A stretch of 64,000 nt of DNA from an uncultured Planctomycetales bacterium (GTDB taxonomy: Bacteria > Omnitrophota > Gorgyraeia > Zapsychrales > JAHFFX01). The first letter of the stretch is position 1. Every line of letters begins with the position of its first letter. This document shows positions 2,739-57,418 of the stretch, in pieces. The stretch covers positions 128,969-192,968 of the forward strand of contig CAZTCI010000003.1 of the NCBI GenBank assembly GCA_964612665.1. Direction: 5' to 3'. The position numbers and the translations under genes are program-made. The notes under the pieces were generated by a model. The model saw only the letters and a list, made by a program, of their open reading frames with translations. It did not search any database and had not been told where the DNA came from.

Positions 2739-5700
2739 TTAAATCGTCAATGAAAACCGGTCTTCTCCCACCAACTCTTTTAATTCGGTCATCAATACTT
2801 CACCCGGTTCAACAAAAAGATCTTCACCGACTAAAATTTGTACGCTTTTATAAGCTTTGGTATTTAAACGCAAATAAACCGGCACTTTCCCCGGAAATTT
2901 CGTTAATTTTTCTTTAAGCGCTGTTAAACCTTTTTCATTCAAGTTGGATAAATCCACATTAATCGATTTGATCGCCCGATAAACTTCATCAATCGGTTTC
3001 ATGTCGCTGGCGACAAGTTTGGCCGCCTCTTCGCGGAATCCAACTTTACCTTTTAAAACCACTACGTCTCCCTCCTTTAACATGGGAGCGAGCGTTGGGT
3101 AAGATGACGGGAAGACAACGACTTCTACTTCCCCATCAAGATCTTCAATTTTAAAAATGGCCATGCGTTCATTGGTTTTCTTGGTGACGGTAAGTTTAAC
3201 CATGCTGATTAAGCCCACAATCTTAACTTCTTGACCATCAATCGCTTTTTTTAAATCCTTCGTCGAGTAATCACTGAATTCTTTCGCCTCAGCCCGGTAA
3301 TGCACCAAAGGATGCCCGCTCACATAAAATCCTAACAATTCTTTCTCGTAAGATAAAATTTCTTTCTTGGGCCATTCCTTAATATCGGGTAAAGTTTCCT
3401 GGCCCTGTTGAAACCCTTCAAATCCACCTTCGGGGCCCGCATCAAAAAACGAGAATTGTCCGACGGCCTTTTCTTTCTGCTGCCGCGCGCCCATTTCTAA
3501 AGCTTTCTCAGCGCAAGCCATCATTTGCGAACGCAACGCCTTAAAACAATCAAACGCGCCACATTTAATCAAACTTTCAACCACCTTCCGATTGGCGACC
3601 CGCAAATCGACACGGTTACAAAAATCAAAAATCGATGCAAACGGCCCATTGGTTTTCCGGTTTTCAGCAATCGATTCAATCGCCGTTAGCCCGACATTCT
3701 TAACCGCTAAAAGTCCAAATCGAATTGTCTTTTGATCGACAACGCTAAACTGCGCGACACTTTCATTCACATCCGGCGGCAAAACCTGGATGCCGATCGC
3801 TTCGCATTCCTTAACATATTCCACAATCTTATCGGTGTTATCTTTTTCACTGGTGAGTAACGCGCACATAAATTCAACCGGATAATTCGCCTTCAAATAC
3901 GCTGTCCGGTAAGTGATGAGCGCGTAAGCGGCCGAATGACTGCGGTTAAAACCATAACCAGAGAAATAATCAATCAAATCAAAAAGCTTGTTGCTCATTT
4001 CTTCTTTCATGTGGCTGGTCTTCTTACAGCCTTCCACAAAATCTTTGCGTACTTTTTCCATCTCTTCGGGATTCTTTTTACTCATCGCCCGACGGAGATG
4101 ATCGGCTTGCGTCATGGTAAAACCTGCCAAGCTGGATGCGATTTGCATGACCTGCTCTTGATAAATGATAATGCCGTAGGTGTCTTTGAGAATCGGTTCG
4201 AGTTTTGGATGGTCGTACTTGACGGGAATTTCACCGCGCTTACGCTTACTAAAATCATCCAACATCCCGCTTCCGATCGGCCCGGGGCGGTAAAGTGCTA
4301 GAATGGAAATAATATCTTCAAATTGATTCGGCCGCACCCGCTTTAAAAGATCGCGCATCCCTCCGCTTTCCAACTGGAAAATTCCAAAACTATTGGCCTG
4401 ACCCAACAGGTCGTAAGTTTTTTTATCTTCCAAAGAAACTTTATTGATATCAACATCCATGCCACGCGTCTTTTTAATGAGCTTCACCGTTTCACTAATA
4501 ACGGTCAAAGTCCTTAAGCCCAAGAAATCCATCTTGAGAAGACCAATTTTGGCAATGCCGTCCATGGAAAAGCCGGTTGTGATTTGATCGTCGGAGGTTT
4601 TAAAAAGCGGAACGTATTCAGTTAAAGCTTTGTCAGCGATGACAACACCGGCGGCATGGATTGAGGCGTGGCGGGAAAGTCCTTCGAGAACTTTGGCGGT
4701 TTCGATGATCTGGGCGGCGTTTTGATCTTGTTCGCAAAGTTGCCGCAATTGCGGTTCAATTTTTAAAGCGTCTTCAAGTGTAATATTGGGGTCACCTGGA
4801 ATCATTTTGGCAATTTTATCAACATCCGCATAAGTGACGCCCATGACGCGGCCGACGTCGCGAATGGCGGCGCGGGCCTGCATACTTCCAAAGGTAATGA
4901 TTTGCGCGACGTTGTCTTTGCCATATTTCTTGGTTACATATTCAATGACTTCGCCGCGGCGTTCGAAACAAAAATCAATATCAATATCCGGCATGCTGAT
5001 ACGTTCGGGATTTAAAAACCGTTCAAACAAAAGCCCATATTTTAATGGATCAAGGTCTGTGATTCCTAAAAGATAACTTACCAAACTCCCGGCTGCTGAT
5101 CCACGGCCAGGCCCGACGGGAATTCCGTTTTGCTTAGCATAATGAATAAAATCCCACACAATCAAAAAGTAACTAATAAAACCCATTTTTTCGATTGTCT
5201 TGAGTTCATGCTCAAGCCGGGCCTCTAGTTCAGGGGTCATTCTTTCGTAACGTTCTTTAAACCCTTCCTGACAGAGCTCCCGTAAAAATTCTTCTTTGGT
5301 TTTTCCGACGGGCGTTTCATAACGCGGCAGGTGAAATTTGTTGAATTGCAATTCGAGATTACATTTGTCCGCAATCTCAAGGGTGTTACGGATCGCCTCA
5401 GGCGCGTAACTAAAGGCCTGCTTCATGACTTCCGGATCTTTAAAATAAAATTGATCCGTTTTAAGCCGCATGCGGTTGGGATCATTAAGAAAGGTCTGGG
5501 TTTGAATGCACAAAAGCGCTTCGTGGGCGGTGAAATATGATTGTTCGAGATAATGAACGTCGTTGGTGGCGACAAGCGGCAGGTTTAAATCTTTGGAAAT
5601 TTTAAGCAGGCCTTCATTGACGATTTTCTGGTCGGGAATCCCGTTTTCCATCAATTCCAAATAAAAATTCCCTTTGCCGAAGATTTGGTGGTATTCGTCG

Positions 5701-6209
5701 GCGGCTTTAAGTGCGGCGTTGTAATTGTTGTGGCGGATATTCCAGGCCACTTCGCCGCGAAGACAAGCTGATGTCGCCAGCAATCCTTCTGCATACTGCG
5801 CGAGAATGCTTTTATCCATACGGGGCTTGTAATAAAATCCCTCGAGATAACCAAGCGAAACCAGTTTCATTAAATTCCGGTAACCGGTTTCATCCCGCAC
5901 AAATAAAACTAAATGAGAAATTCCGCCTTGATCGGTCGTTTTATCAAAACGGCTTTTGGGGGCGACGTAAGCTTCGCAGCCAATAATTGGTTTAACGCCT
6001 AATTTAATTGCTGTCTGATAAAAATCGATGGCGCCAAACATATTCCCATGATCGGTCATGCCGAGTGCGGGCATTTTATAGGCGGCGGCTTTTTGGATGA
6101 GTTCTTTAATACGACAGGCGCCATCCAGAAGGCTGTATTGGGTGTGAACGTGGAGGTGGACGAAATCGGAGTGATACATCTTTTTAAAATCCCAATAGAC
6201 AAATTCCAA
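2739..6209 (-). CDS. dnaE: DNA polymerase III alpha subunit
   Basis: The 1156-aa product has a PHP domain (HLHVHTQYSLLDG), a polymerase core and an OB domain. The true start may be the internal MYHSDF. Confidence 0.95.
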   Translation of the reverse strand: MEFVYWDFKKMYHSDFVHLHVHTQYSLLDGACRIKELIQKAAAYKMPALGMTDHGNMFGAIDFYQTAIKLGVKPIIGCEAYVAPKSRFDKTTDQGGISHLVLFVRDETGYRNLMKLVSLGYLEGFYYKPRMDKSILAQYAEGLLATSACLRGEVAWNIRHNNYNAALKAADEYHQIFGKGNFYLELMENGIPDQKIVNEGLLKISKDLNLPLVATNDVHYLEQSYFTAHEALLCIQTQTFLNDPNRMRLKTDQFYFKDPEVMKQAFSYAPEAIRNTLEIADKCNLELQFNKFHLPRYETPVGKTKEEFLRELCQEGFKERYERMTPELEARLEHELKTIEKMGFISYFLIVWDFIHYAKQNGIPVGPGRGSAAGSLVSYLLGITDLDPLKYGLLFERFLNPERISMPDIDIDFCFERRGEVIEYVTKKYGKDNVAQIITFGSMQARAAIRDVGRVMGVTYADVDKIAKMIPGDPNITLEDALKIEPQLRQLCEQDQNAAQIIETAKVLEGLSRHASIHAAGVVIADKALTEYVPLFKTSDDQITTGFSMDGIAKIGLLKMDFLGLRTLTVISETVKLIKKTRGMDVDINKVSLEDKKTYDLLGQANSFGIFQLESGGMRDLLKRVRPNQFEDIISILALYRPGPIGSGMLDDFSKRKRGEIPVKYDHPKLEPILKDTYGIIIYQEQVMQIASSLAGFTMTQADHLRRAMSKKNPEEMEKVRKDFVEGCKKTSHMKEEMSNKLFDLIDYFSGYGFNRSHSAAYALITYRTAYLKANYPVEFMCALLTSEKDNTDKIVEYVKECEAIGIQVLPPDVNESVAQFSVVDQKTIRFGLLAVKNVGLTAIESIAENRKTNGPFASIFDFCNRVDLRVANRKVVESLIKCGAFDCFKALRSQMMACAEKALEMGARQQKEKAVGQFSFFDAGPEGGFEGFQQGQETLPDIKEWPKKEILSYEKELLGFYVSGHPLVHYRAEAKEFSDYSTKDLKKAIDGQEVKIVGLISMVKLTVTKKTNERMAIFKIEDLDGEVEVVVFPSSYPTLAPMLKEGDVVVLKGKVGFREEAAKLVASDMKPIDEVYRAIKSINVDLSNLNEKGLTALKEKLTKFPGKVPVYLRLNTKAYKSVQILVGEDLFVEPGEVLMTELKELVGEDRFSLTI

Positions 6210-6330
6210 ATCACAAATAATTCCAAATTACAATACCAAAATTCAAAACGAATTCAATCTATTTTCAGTTTGGAATTTGATAATTGTATATTGTTTGTAA
6301 TTTGGTGCTTGTGTATTGGAAATTATAAAG
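6181..6330. repeat. CAAAT/ATTTG-rich imperfect palindromic intergenic element, copy A
   Basis: The left half, caaattccaaatcacaaataattccaaattacaataccaaaattc, is mirrored by gtttggaatttgataattgtatattgtttgtaatttggtgcttg. Copy A closely resembles the element at 16200-16350, sharing atttgataattg.a.atttgtttg..atttgg. Confidence 0.5.
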
Positions 6331-6331
6331 A

Positions 6332-8023
6332 TTATTCCCACTCAATTGTAGCTGGCGGTTTGGAGCTGACATCATATACGACACGGTTGACACCGGCCAC
6401 TTCGTTGATAATGCGGTTGGCGATTTTGCCTAAGATATCATAAGGAAGCTGAACCCAGTCGGCGGTCATGCCGTCGATCGAGTTGACGCAGCGGATGGCA
6501 ATGACATTTTCATAGGTTCGCTGGTCGCCCATGACACCGACGGTCTTAAAAGGCAGCAAAACTGCGAACGATTGCCAAATATCATTATAGAGATTTGATT
6601 TTTTAATTTCCTCTAAAACAATTTCATCAGCCTCGCGCAGCATTTCCAAACGTTCTTTAGTCAATTCGCCAATGATGCGAATCGCCAATCCCGGCCCGGG
6701 AAACGGCTGGCGCTTTAAAATATTCTCGGGCATGTTTAGAATCTTGCCAATGACCCGTACTTCATCTTTAAAAAGTTCGCGCAGCGGTTCAACTAGTTTC
6801 ATCTTCATTATTTTCGGAAGCCCACCCACATTATGATGGCTTTTGATCACAACCGATGGTCCGCCGATCGGAGAAAAAGATTCAATGACATCCGGATATA
6901 ACGTCCCTTGTCCTAAGAAATCAGCGCCCTTAATTTTATGCGCGGCGTCTTGAAACACTTTCACAAATTCATCACCGATCGTTTTACGTTTTTCTTCCGG
7001 ATCAGAAACACCCTTGAGCCGGTTTAAAAAGCGGTCTTGCGCGTCGACAGTATGGAGATTCATATTAAAGTGGCCTTTAAAAGTCTTCTGCACACTCGCC
7101 ACTTCATTTTTACGCAACAATCCATTGTCAACGAATATACAATGCAAACGGTTGCCAATGGCCTTTTGAATAATAGCCGCCGCGACGGCGGAATCAACGC
7201 CACCACTTAATCCTAAAACGACTTTACCGGTATTACCGACGTTTTCATTGATCTCTTTCACTGCAGCGTGGACAAATTTATCCATAGTCCAGCGCGGCAG
7301 GCATCCGCAGATTTGAAAAAGAAAATTAGCGATGATCTGATTACCACGTTGCGTGTGTACGACTTCAGGATGAAATTGAACGCCATATATCTTTTTATGA
7401 CGGTTAGCAATCGCGGCGATGGGGGCATTTAAGGTATGAGCAATTTTTATGAAGCCAGCAGGCATTTTCTTTATTGCATCCCCATGGCTCATCCAGCAGG
7501 TTAAATTCGTCGGGAGATTAAGAAAAAGATCTTTGTTGCTATCAATAAAAAGCTCGGCGCGGCCGAATTCACGCTCCTTACTTTTTTCAACGCTGCCGTC
7601 AAAAAGATGTGTGATCGCCTGCATGCCGTAGCAAACACCAAGAATAGGTTTGTTTAATTTAAAAAGTTCTTTGCGGGGTAAAGGCGCACCTTTGTCATAA
7701 ACACTCATCGGTCCGCCCGAGAAAATCAATCCTTTCGGGTTGATCGCCAAGACTTCTTCAGGAGTAATATTATAGGGAACAATCTTACTATAAACTTTAT
7801 TTTCCCGTACCCGACGGGCAATCAACTGAGTATATTGAGAACCAAAATCTAAGACAAGAATAACATCTTTAACACGGTTGGAAGTTGTACTAACTGAGGC
7901 CTTATGCATAAGACCTTTTCGAAGAGTAGAAAATCCTTTTTTGAAGAATTTCTTTGGTTTGTGAATTTTACGCAGGGGTCTTGGGGAAAATTTTTTTACT
8001 TTCTTGACGGATTTTTTCTTCAT
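6332..8023 (-). CDS. guaA: GMP synthase (glutamine-hydrolysing) with a Lys-rich N-terminal extension or a mis-called start
   Basis: GATase (GVCYGMQ), the ATP-PPase SGGVDS motif and the C-terminal dimerisation domain are present. The first ~38 aa, [29 protein letters not shown], are non-canonical, and MHKASV is an alternative start. Confidence 0.9.
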
Positions 8024-9417: not shown

Positions 9418-11064
<1,647 letters not shown>

Positions 11065-12453: not shown

Positions 12454-14524
12454 TCAATCCGGATTTTCTTTTCTTGGACGACGAGAAACGCCGGGCGCCC
12501 CCGCGGGCTGGCCGATCCGCTGGCCTCTTAAAATCCGACGAAGACGCCCCCGCAGGGGCGCCTATCTCCTTCATCTCTCTAATCTTATCCCTAATCATCG
12601 CCGCTTTCTCAAATTGCAAATTCCGCGCCGCCACTTCCATCTGCCGTTCCAAATCCGCAAGAAGCGACGACATTGCGTAAGCTTCTTCATCTTGTCCGAC
12701 GATATTCATGACAAACTCCTTGGCCTCAGCAAGTTCTTCAATGCCTTCGCGGATCGCTTTTTCTATAGAACGCGGTGTAATGTTATGCGTTTTATTAAAT
12801 TCAATTTGAATTTTCCGACGGCGTTCGCTCTCATCGATCGTTGCTTTCATAGCTGGCGTTCTTTTATCGGCGTACATGATCACCATGCCGTTAACATTGC
12901 GCGCGGCACGTCCCGCGGTTTGAATCAACGATGTTTGCGACCGTAAAAATCCTTCTTTGTCGGCATCCAAAATAACTACAAGAGAAACTTCTGGCAAATC
13001 CAACCCTTCTCTTAACAGATTCACGCCCACCAGGCAATCGAATTTTTTTAAACGTAATTCTTTTAGAATTTGAGAACGCTCGATGGTTTCAATGTCGGAG
13101 TGAAGATACTTTACTTTGACGCCGCGCTCCTCGAGAAAACTGGTTAAATCTTCGGACATTTTCTTAGTTAAAGTTGTCACAAGGGTACGCTCGCTGCGTT
13201 TGACACGCTCTTGGATTTCGAAAAGAAGGTCTTCAATTTGACCCGTCGTTGGCCTCACTTCAATCGGCGGATCGACAATACCCGTCGGACGGATGATTTG
13301 TTCAACAACATAATTCTTGCTTTCTTTATATTCAAAACCGCCCGGCGTTGCTGAGACATAAATCCGCTGCCCCATAATAGACATGAGTTCGTGAAATTTA
13401 AGCGGCCGGTTATCCAAACACGACGGCAAACGGAATCCGTAGTTGACCAGCATGTCCTTGCGTGAACGATCGCCTTCGTACATGCCGTTTAATTGCGGAA
13501 CGGTGACATGCGATTCATCAATGACAACTAGAAAATCTTTTGGAAAATAATCGAGTAAACAAAACGGCCGGCTGCCCGGCGGGCGGCCGGCTAAAATCCT
13601 CGAATAGTTTTCAATCCCGTGACAAAATCCCATTTCGCGTAACATTTCCATGTCATAACGGGTCCGGGAATTTAAACGCTGGGATTCCAATAATTTTCCC
13701 TGCTTGTTAAGTTCAACGACGCGGGCAACTAATTCCCGTTCTATTTCATTCAACGCTTCTTCCAATCGCGGTTGAGAGACAATAAAATGTTTCGCCGGAT
13801 AAATAGCAATTTTTTCTAAATCCGCTATGACTTCGGCAGAAACCGGATTGATTTGGACAATACTTTCAATGTGATCGTCGTTAAACTGAATGCGAAGCGC
13901 GTCTTGACGATAAGCTGGAAAAACTTCCACAACATCGCCACGAACACGGAATTTGCCGCGGCTAAAATCAACATCGTTACGTTCATATTGAATGCCGACT
14001 AAGCTACGCAAGACTTCATCGCGGTCAACGGTTTGGCCTTTCGCCAAATAAATTAAAAATTCTTTGTAATCTTCCGGTGAGCCGAGATTGTAAATGCAAG
14101 AAACGCTCGCCACGATTAAAACGTCCCGGCGGGACATTAAAGAAGTGGTCGCCGCCAAACGCAAACGGTCCAAGCGGTCGTTGATTGAAGCGTCCTTCTC
14201 TATATAGACGTCGGTTTGAGGCACATAAGCTTCAGGCTGATAATAATCGTAGTAACTGACAAAATATTCAACAGCGTTTTGGGGAAAGAATTCTTTGAAT
14301 TCGCTGTAAAGCTGGGCGGCGAGCGTTTTATTGTGGGAAATTACTAGCGTTGGGCGGTTAATCTTTTCGATGGCGTTGGCTAAGGTAAAAGTCTTGCCGC
14401 TTCCAGTCACGCCAAGCAAAACCTGCGACGAAACACCCTGATTAATATTCTTAACCAGCTGATCGATCGCTTTGTCTTGTTCGATGATGGGTTTGAAGTT
14501 GCTTTTGAGGAGGAATTTTTCCAT
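12446..14524 (-). CDS. uvrB: Excinuclease ABC subunit B
   Basis: The 692-aa product has helicase motifs (GVTGSGKT), a beta-hairpin and a UvrC-binding domain. It also carries an unusual basic Ser/Arg-rich C-terminal tail. Confidence 0.95.
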   Translation of the reverse strand: MEKFLLKSNFKPIIEQDKAIDQLVKNINQGVSSQVLLGVTGSGKTFTLANAIEKINRPTLVISHNKTLAAQLYSEFKEFFPQNAVEYFVSYYDYYQPEAYVPQTDVYIEKDASINDRLDRLRLAATTSLMSRRDVLIVASVSCIYNLGSPEDYKEFLIYLAKGQTVDRDEVLRSLVGIQYERNDVDFSRGKFRVRGDVVEVFPAYRQDALRIQFNDDHIESIVQINPVSAEVIADLEKIAIYPAKHFIVSQPRLEEALNEIERELVARVVELNKQGKLLESQRLNSRTRYDMEMLREMGFCHGIENYSRILAGRPPGSRPFCLLDYFPKDFLVVIDESHVTVPQLNGMYEGDRSRKDMLVNYGFRLPSCLDNRPLKFHELMSIMGQRIYVSATPGGFEYKESKNYVVEQIIRPTGIVDPPIEVRPTTGQIEDLLFEIQERVKRSERTLVTTLTKKMSEDLTSFLEERGVKVKYLHSDIETIERSQILKELRLKKFDCLVGVNLLREGLDLPEVSLVVILDADKEGFLRSQTSLIQTAGRAARNVNGMVIMYADKRTPAMKATIDESERRRKIQIEFNKTHNITPRSIEKAIREGIEELAEAKEFVMNIVGQDEEAYAMSSLLADLERQMEVAARNLQFEKAAMIRDKIREMKEIGAPAGASSSDFKRPADRPARGGARRFSSSKKRKSGLNA

Positions 14525-15751: not shown

Positions 15752-16351
15752 TTAATTGCCTAACGCGGTGGCGATTTGATCTAACAAACGGTTGGCGTAA
15801 TGGTCGTTACGGTAGCCGCGTAATTGTTTCAAAGGCAACGCGGTGATCACGCCGTAACGGATTTCTACTTCAGTGGCGTTTTGTAACGAACGGACATAAA
15901 CATTAAGCTGAGTGTAACGCGAATACAAAAACATGGAAGTTTCTTTAAGTTCAGTCAAGATGATCGTCTGTTTGGAGGCAGGATGTCGTTCACTTTGAAC
16001 CTCTTCATACACCGATGGGTCGGTCGTTTTGGCAATTTTCCAATTATTGTTTTTTAAAACTTTTTTTACAACTCTAAGAGTTTGATCATAACTGGCATAG
16101 TATTCACGTGTGTAAGGATTTTTGTCTTGAAGATACTGGGACATTGGAGTGCTGACGCAGCTACTTAACGATAGAAGAACTGGAATATATAGAATTCTCC
16201 GTCGCCAAGCTAAACTCCAAATCCTAAATACCAAATTACAAATAATTATCAAATTCCAATAACCAAAATTCCAAACCGCTGAATTCTTCGAAAAATTTGA
16301 TAATTGAAATTTGTTTGCGATTTGGGATTTGAGATTTGAAAATTGATTCAT
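15752..16351 (-). CDS. Hypothetical lipoprotein; the start is uncertain
   Basis: A signal peptide RRRILYIPVLLSLSSC carries a lipobox. The annotated N-terminal ~45 aa are the translation of the repeat element at 16200-16350. Confidence 0.4.
   Translation of the reverse strand: MNQFSNLKSQIANKFQLSNFSKNSAVWNFGYWNLIIICNLVFRIWSLAWRRRILYIPVLLSLSSCVSTPMSQYLQDKNPYTREYYASYDQTLRVVKKVLKNNNWKIAKTTDPSVYEEVQSERHPASKQTIILTELKETSMFLYSRYTQLNVYVRSLQNATEVEIRYGVITALPLKQLRGYRNDHYANRLLDQIATALGN
16200..16350. repeat. CAAAT/ATTTG-rich imperfect palindromic intergenic element, copy B
   Basis: One half reads ccaaattacaaataattatcaaattccaataaccaaaattccaaacc. The other reads aaaaatttgataattgaaatttgtttgcgatttgggatttgagatttg. 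It is similar to copy A. Confidence 0.5.
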
Positions 16352-29279: not shown

Positions 29280-29360
29280 TTTTATACCTTTAATTTCATG
29301 CTGGGTTTTTCCTTCACGAAAAATTTAGTCTTTTAATCAAAGGAAAAACCTTAGCATTAA

Positions 29361-29391
29361 ATTTTGTCATCCCTTGGGACGACAAAATTTA
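29361..29391 (-). terminator. Hairpin terminator downstream of tRNA-Gly
   Basis: The sequence aaattttgtc-atcccttgggac-gacaaaattt has a perfect 10-bp stem, followed by T-rich sequence on the minus strand. Confidence 0.4.
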
Positions 29392-29463
29392 AGCGAGGGA
29401 CGGGGATTGAACCCGCGACGTCAAGCTTGGGAAGCTTGCATTCTACCACTGAATTACCCTCGC
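29392..29463 (-). tRNA. tRNA-Gly (anticodon CCC)
   Basis: The sequence folds by hand into a cloverleaf: GCGAGGGTAATTCAGTGGTAGAATGCAAGCTTCCCAAGCTTGACGTCGCGGGTTCAATCCCCGTCCCTCGCT. The acceptor is 7 bp, the anticodon loop is TTCCCAA, and the T-loop is GTTCAATCC. CCA is not encoded. Confidence 0.8.
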
Positions 29464-29481: not shown

Positions 29482-29546
29482 TTCGTTGTTCGGGGAATTC
29501 ATGTTTTTATTTAAAAAAATAGAAGAACGAATTCCACGAACAACGA
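29482..29546. repeat. Interrupted hairpin between thiE and tRNA-Gly
   Basis: The stems ttcgttgttcg / cgaacaacgaa (11 bp) and ggaattc / gaattcc flank an AT-rich loop. Confidence 0.4.
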
Positions 29547-29575
29547 AAGCAGAGACTGTTGAATGATAACATTTG

Positions 29576-29645
29576 AACGCGAATTCTCGCGAATTGCACA
29601 CAAATATTCGCGAATATTAGTGTGCAATTCGCGAGAATTCGCGTT
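29576..29645. repeat. 70-bp near-perfect palindrome upstream of tRNA-Gly
   Basis: The 26-bp arms are aacgcgaattctcgcgaattgcacac and gtgtgcaattcgcgagaattcgcgtt. They flank a self-palindromic core, aatattcgcgaatatt. There is one mismatch overall. The TCGCGA and GAATTC sub-motifs recur. Confidence 0.6.
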
Positions 29646-38406: not shown

Positions 38407-38419
38407 AGGAATATCCTTA

Positions 38420-38480
38420 TTAAGTGGTAAGCATCAAATTTCCAATTCCAATGTTATTAGAATTTGGTGCTTGAAATTTT
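38420..38480. repeat. Partial copy of the CAAAT/ATTTG-rich element, copy C
   Basis: The segment caaatttccaattccaat ... aatttggtgcttg shares the aatttggtgcttg block with copy A. Confidence 0.3.
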
Positions 38481-38548
38481 TTGTTAAGTTCAATAGCGGT
38501 CTAGAATATCATTTGCCCTCTAAGTTGTCAACCGACCCTCTGCTATCT

Positions 38549-57304: not shown

Positions 57305-57418
57305 AACTCGAAATTAAGGAGAGAGTTCTTCTTCGCTCTTATACTTTTGTGTAAGAGCTTCGAAGGAATTCCTGCGAAGCCCAAACATAAGAATATTTGG
57401 GCGAAGCAGAACTCCTCG

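Follow-up and report, generated by a model that had tools for sequence, protein, structure and literature searches.

The ERIC/IRU elements of enterobacteria and the Correia/NEMIS elements of Neisseria are co-transcribed and form long RNA hairpins that alter mRNA processing and stability. The RNase III sites of phage T7 are stems of approximately 20 bp with a defined internal loop, and they are not dispersed repeats common to bacterial chromosomes. The STRR heptamers of cyanobacteria are grouped with the paired heptameric repeats. Heptameric repeats are over-represented in intergenic DNA, with 70-75 inverted pairs per Xanthomonas genome; their function is unknown, and slippage has been proposed as the origin of those in Xanthomonas (PMC4692102). 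The heptamer repeats of Xanthomonas and Nostoc are transcribed, and their length and sequence differ between related species (PMC4692102). The REPINs, finally, are reported to be inherited mostly vertically (PMC3116915, PMC3337134). Here we describe a family of palindromic intergenic elements, built from degenerate CAAAT-type heptamers, in a 64,000-nucleotide stretch of DNA from an uncultured bacterium of the Omnitrophota lineage (contig CAZTCI010000003.1, positions 128,969 to 192,968; this whole 64-kb stretch is called the window below). The phylum is uncultured and, to our knowledge, its gene regulation is unstudied.

The explanation that we consider best, with somewhat better than even confidence, is a dispersed family of AT-rich palindromes of approximately 130-150 nt that are gained and lost, are co-transcribed, and fold into an intercistronic RNA hairpin. 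The dispersal is shown by the copies described below, and from their setting we infer a role for the RNA in processing, stability or masking of start codons. An earlier reading of the window from its letters alone (the sequence-only reading) had proposed three copies of about 150 bp each. Two of them, elements A and B, are real and collinear and have this length. The third, element C, is only a marginal or truncated match (29.7 bits) with a mini hairpin of 45-70 nt, and we return to it later. The parts of A and B are as follows; the boundaries of the two elements are the ends of the covariance-model matches.

6180-6331: element A, filling the whole 152-nt spacer from the guaA stop (6334-6332) to the dnaE ATG (6179-6177), both on the minus strand; covariance model 118.8 bits (minus) and 117.4 bits (plus)
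6190-6325: core hairpin of element A
6268-6325, minus strand: 5' arm of A (sense), CA-rich; box CCAAATTACAAACAA at 6305-6291; lag-7 autocorrelation 0.55 (1/1000 shuffles)
6250-6267: variable loop of A, with GAATTC at 6250
6190-6249, minus strand: 3' arm of A (sense), UG-rich as RNA; box CCAAATCACAAATAA on the plus strand at 6206-6220; lag-7 autocorrelation 0.53 (4/1000 shuffles)
16205-16351: element B, preceded by the stop (16372-16370) of a gene for a MazG-like pyrophosphohydrolase and followed by a conserved lipoprotein gene; covariance model 118.9 and 117 bits
16291-16345 and 16205-16268: arms of B
16269-16290: loop of B, with GAATTC at 16281
16231-16245 (plus strand) and 16311-16325 (minus strand): boxes of B

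The long blocks that the sequence-only reading saw in common between copies are borne out by the alignment of A and B, which contains a 51-nt ungapped block at 76% identity and is collinear over both arms; the loops differ. A two-block pattern derived from the arms has three matches, against 0.00 expected. Each arm of A and B contains one copy of a 15-nt box (CCAAATNNCAAAYAA), and these four copies are the only ones in the window, where 0.03 would be expected; the box is conserved in both arms of every full-length family member. The outermost conserved ends read AAAWTYCCAA ... TTGGRAWTT, and the entire element is an inverted repeat, as are the termini of MITEs, the miniature inverted-repeat transposable elements. 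On either strand, the arm read first (5') is rich in CA and the other (3') in TG, and the element model scores almost the same on both strands.

Each arm consists of a degenerate array of heptamers, CAAATNN in the 5' arm and NNATTTG in the 3' arm. In all eight arms of A, B and two family members from elsewhere (L007 and L227, introduced below), the autocorrelation at lag 7 peaks at 0.53-0.65, a value that no more than 4/1000 shuffles attain. Tandem Repeats Finder calls period-7 arrays in both A and B, with unit matches of 71-89%. When the order of the heptamer units is shuffled, the observed score between the arms of A and B is reached in only 9/500 and 15/500 trials, and that between A and L007 in 3/500. 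The extended collinear matches between copies therefore stand, and the similarity is not just that of low-complexity DNA. The two arms within one element show no excess over the same null (56/500 and 218/500). A shared unit order between corresponding arms of different elements, but not between the arms of a single element, is the pattern that copying of entire elements would give, and not that of separate growth of each hairpin.

The family extends beyond the window. A pattern scan of genomes (one genome per species) found an element of 126.8 bits in a metagenome-assembled genome (MAG) of the Victivallaceae (locus L007), where it has 34% G+C in a locus of 58% G+C, and a related element of 52 bits in a Fibrobacter MAG (L006). 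A covariance model trained on A, B and the L007 element detected nine more hairpins in other fetched loci: eight in approximately 0.37 Mb of Omnitrophota-like loci and one in the same Fibrobacter MAG. Among the nine are a match in the groES-groEL spacer of L135 and one at the ortholog of site B (the gene junction that holds element B). The family members elsewhere are AT-rich (26-34% G+C) within genomes of 53-58% G+C. Family members start 0-27 nt past a stop codon and end 3-50 nt ahead of the next start. The sequence-only reading had placed the copies just upstream of a gene start; this is so, and A and B lie in addition just downstream of a stop codon on the same strand.

Phage contigs carry the element as well. 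One phage, represented by two contigs that are 99.99% identical (L227 and L337), has portal, capsid and tail-tube genes and a single element of 94 bits between two tail-region genes. A second phage contig, L338, has three copies in 4.5 kb. They are located around its portal, major-head and structural genes, every copy between a stop codon and the start that follows. The arms of copies 2 and 3 are near-identical.

777-913, 1384-1510 and 3890-4016 of contig L338: three copies, placed on either side of the gene that separates the portal gene from the major-head gene, and after a structural-protein gene

Other searches returned no relatives. GenBank phages and plasmids contain no homolog, and a family-specific single-arm pattern had no match in viral contigs. 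A 16-mer from the element had more than 120 chance or coding matches in viral contigs, none of which is an element. Viral contigs, including those of giant viruses, often contain arrays of the form (CAAATNN)4, which are mostly unrelated; a real element was present in only 1/119 loci. In Rfam 15, the matches of the window at the gathering threshold are to tRNA only, loci L003-L008 have none, and element A at E-values up to 10 has only chance matches to microRNA precursors (E 0.6-9). The matches in Acidobacteria and in a Lentisphaerae relative had suggested the Acido-Lenti-1 motif or another long-hairpin motif of Rfam, but none matches at any threshold. A literature search gave no paper on repeats in Omnitrophota and none matching this family. 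Two Acidobacteriota MAGs (57%+ G+C) have AT-rich hairpins with CAATTATCAAATT, which is common to the window elements (L004, 1310-1432, between convergent genes; L008, 4425-4532, upstream of clpB). We do not include them in the family: their topology is opposite, with the TG arm first, and the covariance model misses both.

Are the elements kept in place? The gene order PilZ - RluA - MazG - lipoprotein - radical SAM - UvrB - PanK - GroES - GroEL - IMPDH - GuaA - DnaE is kept in relatives, which allows the same junctions to be compared. At the site B junction, a CAAAT-type hairpin is present in the window and in L135. In six relatives (L129, L139, L140, L141, L142, L143) the mazG stop overlaps the lipoprotein start or lies within approximately 10 nt of it, and there is no element. 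In another, L132, a 93-nt hairpin made of other heptamers (GCGTATG/GCTAATG) lies between the TAG and the ATG. At site A, the guaA-dnaE spacers of L129 and L138 are unrelated (145-171 nt), and that of L165 contains a hairpin with 43-nt arms made from the 9-mers GTTAAAAAG/GTTAAGGAT (12870-12963). The groES-groEL spacer of L165 likewise has a hairpin, made from 8-mers (GTGTGTAA; 7723-7823). Since they are absent or replaced at orthologous sites, the elements are not conserved in place and have been gained, lost or replaced. Judged from these alignments, gain and loss occur on the time scale that separates related Omnitrophota species. The L135 locus has a further peculiarity: at the ortholog of site B, a G+C-rich hairpin (CCTGCCCGCCCTGG...CCAGGGAGCG; about 10330-10412) is nested in the CAAAT-type element, within its 5' arm. 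It appears that one small element lies inside another, by insertion.

Site B also bears on the claim that the elements encode no protein. This needs to be modified, as the open reading frame (ORF) at 16351-15752 on the minus strand is open through all of element B, and the likely TTG start of the lipoprotein lies in the 3' arm of the element.

16234-16232, minus strand: candidate TTG start of the downstream lipoprotein gene, inside the 3' arm of B (inferred start)

The translation of this frame contains a signal peptide (RRRILYIPVLLSLSSC), and there is no canonical start between element B and the lipobox. Upstream of the signal peptide, the frame offers only one other possible start, the ATG at 16351-16349; translation from it would cover the whole element and add approximately 40 residues. 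The ancestral start of the lipoprotein gene, which overlaps the mazG stop in relatives, is lost in the window, and on this comparison the insertion of element B has displaced it. Gene callers vary in their placement of the lipoprotein start from one assembly to another. An identical copy of locus B, element included, is present in an independent assembly of the same organism (L001; Logan assemblies, two sequencing runs).

The halves of A and B are mutually reverse-complementary, as the sequence-only reading had it, and each element folds as one long imperfect hairpin with arms of approximately 55 nt. The sense strand of A folds at -36.7 kcal/mol (z -5.15) and that of B at -37.2 kcal/mol (z -3.82), against -27.9 for the antisense strand of B; in either case 0/200 shuffles fold equally well. 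If 30 nt of flank are included on each side of A, the stem lengthens to just past the guaA stop and over the dnaE start codon. Covariance modelling, which had been suggested for the case that the element is transcribed, adds to the nine hairpins a record of paired changes. The alignment of all matches is fitted to the model and includes each element on both of its strands. Of its cells, 87% are paired, compared with 74% in shuffles, and 24/35 pairs change on both sides; slid controls give 29-53%. At the level of sequence, this covariation shows that complementarity has been maintained; it does not follow that the pairing acts in RNA.

The CAAAT elements are one flavour of a wider class of hairpins in this lineage. 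In the approximately 0.37 Mb of Omnitrophota-like loci, 39 of 71 tandem arrays have period 7, compared to 11 with period 6 and 9 with period 8. Many of these arrays are inverted pairs that form hairpins, each with a unit of its own (AGTAGAG, GCGTATG, TGTGTAA, CGAAATC, AGGTGAT, AGTTCAT). Many of the hairpins start 0-35 nt past a stop codon and end shortly ahead of the next ribosome-binding site. The 9-mer and 8-mer hairpins of L165 indicate that the class is not strictly heptameric. In L145, two TGTGTAA hairpins 3.2 kb apart are 86% identical, loop included, which indicates that members of the class form dispersed families. The heptamer-array arms, the start right after stop codons and the membership in this class all go beyond what had been noticed from the letters. 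L165 also contains perfect AGGTGAT / ATCACCT arrays around approximately 160 nt that resemble coding sequence (3891-4124), a hairpin that may lie inside or across a gene rather than between genes.

How does the family compare with the systems mentioned at the outset? With ERIC/IRU and Correia it has in common that the elements are imperfect palindromes of 100-155 bp, intergenic within transcription units, and present or absent between related strains. It has no sequence similarity to them, belongs to other phyla, and has heptamer-array arms with the box in both. Unlike ERIC and Correia, moreover, it has no orientation (its score is equal on both strands), shows no TA target duplication or IHF site, and is found in phage structural-gene modules too. 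The T7 RNase III hairpins are likewise intercistronic stem-loops in long polycistronic phage messages, and the three copies of L338 lie around genes in the scaffold position and for the capsid. The REP (repetitive extragenic palindromic) sequences and REPINs, mobilised by RAYT proteins, are also non-coding intergenic hairpins with two inverted halves and a variable spacer, in several families per genome (PMC3116915, PMC3337134). However, the halves of a REPIN are short self-palindromic REPs, while the arms here are CA-only or TG-only and do not fold on themselves. In terms of composition, the arms are near G-free on one strand and near C-free on the other, without the half-palindrome or a GTAG-type motif of REPs. 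No gene for a RAYT (Y1 transposase) is present among the 29 window ORFs scanned, and the CAAAT family is common to phyla and phages, in contrast to the mostly vertical inheritance of REPINs. The paired heptamers GGGAATC of Xanthomonas and GGGGAYT of Nostoc (PMC4692102) are similar in being tandem intergenic 7-nt units in convergent arrays able to form stem-loops. Those arrays are near-perfect, G-rich and quadruplex-capable, whereas the CAAAT elements are degenerate, AT-rich and without GGG runs; across distant genomes they keep the order of their irregular units and share a conserved box.

Of the three candidates of the sequence-only reading, a MITE/REP-like repeat is thus the one that we favour, on the strength of the collinear copies, the presence and absence at orthologous sites, and the occurrence in another phylum and in phages. 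The repeat is dispersed and polymorphic; no target-site duplication was seen in the flanks and no cognate transposase among the 29 window ORFs scanned, and the arms are not REP sub-units. The family, undescribed so far and found here in an uncultured phylum, represents a variant of the REP/ERIC/MITE-like hairpins and the paired heptameric repeats; it is no new kind of system. What is unusual is that the arms are heptamer arrays of many flavours, that the hairpins turn over at identical gene junctions, and that the family occurs in phages and across phyla. Some further identities were tried and rejected. An integron attC site is not supported, as the GTTTGG/CCAAAC words adjoin the loop and not the outer ends and the neighbours are housekeeping genes. 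By eye, there is no consensus match for an IHF site, a CsrA GGA sponge, a Rho-loading site or a Bacteroidetes-type promoter, or else the motif is sequestered in the stem. Scans for a sigma-70 promoter in the 3' arm are at or below chance.

The comparisons show, as far as genome sequences can, a family that is dispersed and palindromic, occupies stop-to-start gaps, is polymorphic between related genomes, and is common to another phylum and to phages. Several observations nevertheless weigh against a dispersed family that acts as RNA. The similarity of the arms is owed mostly to common heptamer units (the CAAAT words), and only two or three copies can be counted in the 64-kb window. The Pfam scan of 29 window ORFs gives no transposase. 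No shared direct repeat is visible beside A, B, L007, L227 or L338, and the empty orthologous sites, at no more than 86% protein identity, are too diverged for junctions to be placed to the base. The different repeat-built hairpins at one orthologous site could arise locally without transposition. This last point leads to the main rival for the origin of individual hairpins, in which a heptamer expands by replication slippage and is mirrored by quasi-palindrome template switching or fold-back copying, so that hairpins grow in place at gene ends. We regard such a local origin as possible but doubtful. It would account for the strict 7-nt periodicity of all arms, for the dominance of period 7 among the arrays of the Omnitrophota-like loci, for the many inverted array pairs with different units, and for the 7-, 8- or 9-mer hairpins that different relatives have in one orthologous spacer. 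It has a published parallel in the inverted heptamer pairs of Xanthomonas, for which slippage was proposed (PMC4692102). The heptamer structure as such is best explained by slippage, possibly together with template switching inside a quasi-palindrome, and the two processes may be the source of the many repeat flavours. However, the non-repetitive 15-nt box and the order of irregular units are common to unrelated loci, another phylum and phages, the two L145 copies are similar through the loop, and the elements are far more AT-rich than the genomes around them. Copying between sites is needed to explain these features, and we see slippage as complementary to dispersal.

The remaining alternatives concern what the hairpin does. 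Since G-U pairs on the sense strand (20) show no excess over A-C mismatches (17), and thus no RNA-type bias, and sense and antisense folding energies differ in no consistent direction, two further points against an RNA role, the pairing could be at the DNA level or a mere by-product of the way the elements originate. A DNA-level site, in which the inverted heptamer arrays and the box are bound by a nucleoid-associated, replication or recombination protein or the palindrome extrudes as a cruciform, would agree with the absence of G-U bias, with the box in both arms of all full-length members and with the near-equal model score on both strands. We still think it very unlikely: no candidate protein has been identified, the elements fill stop-to-start gaps rather than promoter regions, and their absence from orthologous sites in close relatives argues against a locus-specific regulatory role. 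The recurrent regulator-binding array of the sequence-only reading is unlikely on similar grounds: the elements lie inside strings of genes, between a stop and the next start, and their neighbours are unrelated genes (dnaE, lipoprotein, DUF1844, groEL, phage capsid), which counts against the DNA-level site as well. A weak or partial terminator between cistrons (an attenuator), lowering downstream expression of, for example, dnaE relative to guaA, is quite unlikely. Elements do begin right after stop codons, the 3' arm ends in ...ATTT in the members read (A ends in ...GGGATTTT), leaving 3-4 U after the stem, and one related hairpin lies between convergent genes (L004). But a scan for intrinsic terminators finds none at A, B or C, where only 3-4 T follow the stem, and the stems are long, AT-rich and mismatched. 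The next gene starts 3-50 nt past the element, with no promoter found in scans, and termination would be harmful between groES and groEL or before a phage major-head gene, where copies are found. We give almost no credence to chance similarity of AT-rich, low-complexity sequence, or to the idea that the downstream genes have a conserved cis-regulatory RNA, be it a riboswitch or a leader. The sequences are indeed AT-rich and made of few words, and the chance matches of the 16-mer illustrate what such words can do, but the box and pattern statistics exclude chance, the unit shuffle supports collinearity and the covariation is strong. A structured 5'-untranslated-region (5'-UTR) motif of riboswitch type, the third of the earlier candidates, is unlikely: here the arms and not the loops are conserved, Rfam has no matching family, and the genes that lie downstream are unrelated.

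If the elements form a dispersed, co-transcribed family, as we favour, the following steps can be proposed. Copies land in, or survive only in, short stop-to-start gaps. They are probably co-transcribed, since the strings of same-strand genes in which they lie leave no space, and show no signal, for a promoter or a canonical terminator. The transcript would then contain an RNA duplex of approximately 55 bp with scattered mismatches between two cistrons. Such a duplex may act as a barrier to 3'-exonucleases, as a processing site of the RNase III type, or both, so that the messages upstream and downstream of it would be free to differ in stability. In the guaA-dnaE spacer, the stem would at its base pair the dnaE start region with sequence directly past the guaA stop, and translation of dnaE would depend on ribosomes or nucleases opening the stem. 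A tuning of expression, rather than pure junk, would better fit the copies that lie between groES and groEL and in the compact structural operons of phages. It is tempting to go further and suppose that hairpins with tandem 7-9-nt repeat arms are made or moved by a dedicated enzyme, or that the box CCAAATNNCAAAYAA is recognised by an RNA- or DNA-binding factor, so that phages exchange a portable intercistronic expression signal between phyla. We consider this extension speculative and rather improbable.

Should the proposal be correct, the family offers a handle on the processing and differential expression of same-strand gene strings in Omnitrophota, where one site buries the start codon of a replicative polymerase gene. 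The over-representation of heptamers in bacterial intergenic DNA has no accepted explanation. With its flavours, inverted pairs, turnover at orthologous sites and phage copies, this lineage makes the questions of slippage versus mobility and of DNA versus RNA testable by comparison. In addition, the family is worth masking in annotation, as gene callers run ORFs into the elements (the window ORF at 16351 and the start calls in L135/L136).

Element C, the third of the proposed copies, is found in the 5'-UTR of a DUF1844 gene.

38415-38486: element C, between a CBS-domain gene and the DUF1844 gene (ATG 38406-38404)
38432-38476: mini hairpin of element C
38503-38531, minus strand: strong promoter-like site (TTGACA-17-TATTCT, the -10 extended by a TG), upstream of both C and the DUF1844 gene; context, outside the repeat

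The fold of the mini hairpin has a z-score of only about -2.5. C has a 13-mer, CAAGCACCAAATT, in common with A and L007, and its covariance-model match has an E-value of 0.003-0.02. It is probably a truncated or marginal family member. The string TTGACAAC...TGATATTCT precedes the DUF1844 gene in a relative, L342, too, where it is near-identical, and a similar string is found in L339.

The window as a whole has 42% G+C. The homologs of its MazG-like protein at 76-77% identity carry the NCBI names Candidatus Omnitrophica/Omnitrophota. Almost all window genes are on the minus strand and the cumulative GC skew declines steadily from 1 to 64000, which is consistent with one arm of a replichore and strongly co-oriented genes.

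There are other long palindromes in the window. Two adjacent ones lie between the stop of a thiE-like gene (29688) and a tRNA-Gly(CCC) gene (29463-29392, minus strand), and GAATTC occurs twice in each. One (29482-29547) has arms of 31 nt with 84% complementarity, which include TTGTTCG heptamers. The other (29576-29645) has arms of 35 nt with 97% complementarity and no loop, and gives a weak match to the CAAAT model (32-33 bits). Directly 3' of the tRNA-Gly gene, in a terminator-like position, is a hairpin with 17-nt arms that are 94% complementary (29357-29392). A 92-nt palindrome with 78% complementarity and the centre GGAATTCC (57323-57414) occupies the gap between two minus-strand genes (stop 57419, start 57304); it is placed like A and B, but has no heptamer periodicity.

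The hexamer GAATTC occupies the central part of hairpins from different sequence families, at 6250, 16281, 29495, 29529, 29581, 29635 and 57366 of the window, and is also central in hairpins at about 10345 in L132 and about 5130 in L160. Its count over the whole window is as expected (35 vs 37). Its presence in hairpin centres may be trivial, as GAATTC is a variant of the GAATTTG unit and is itself palindromic, or it could mark a site of nucleation or recognition.

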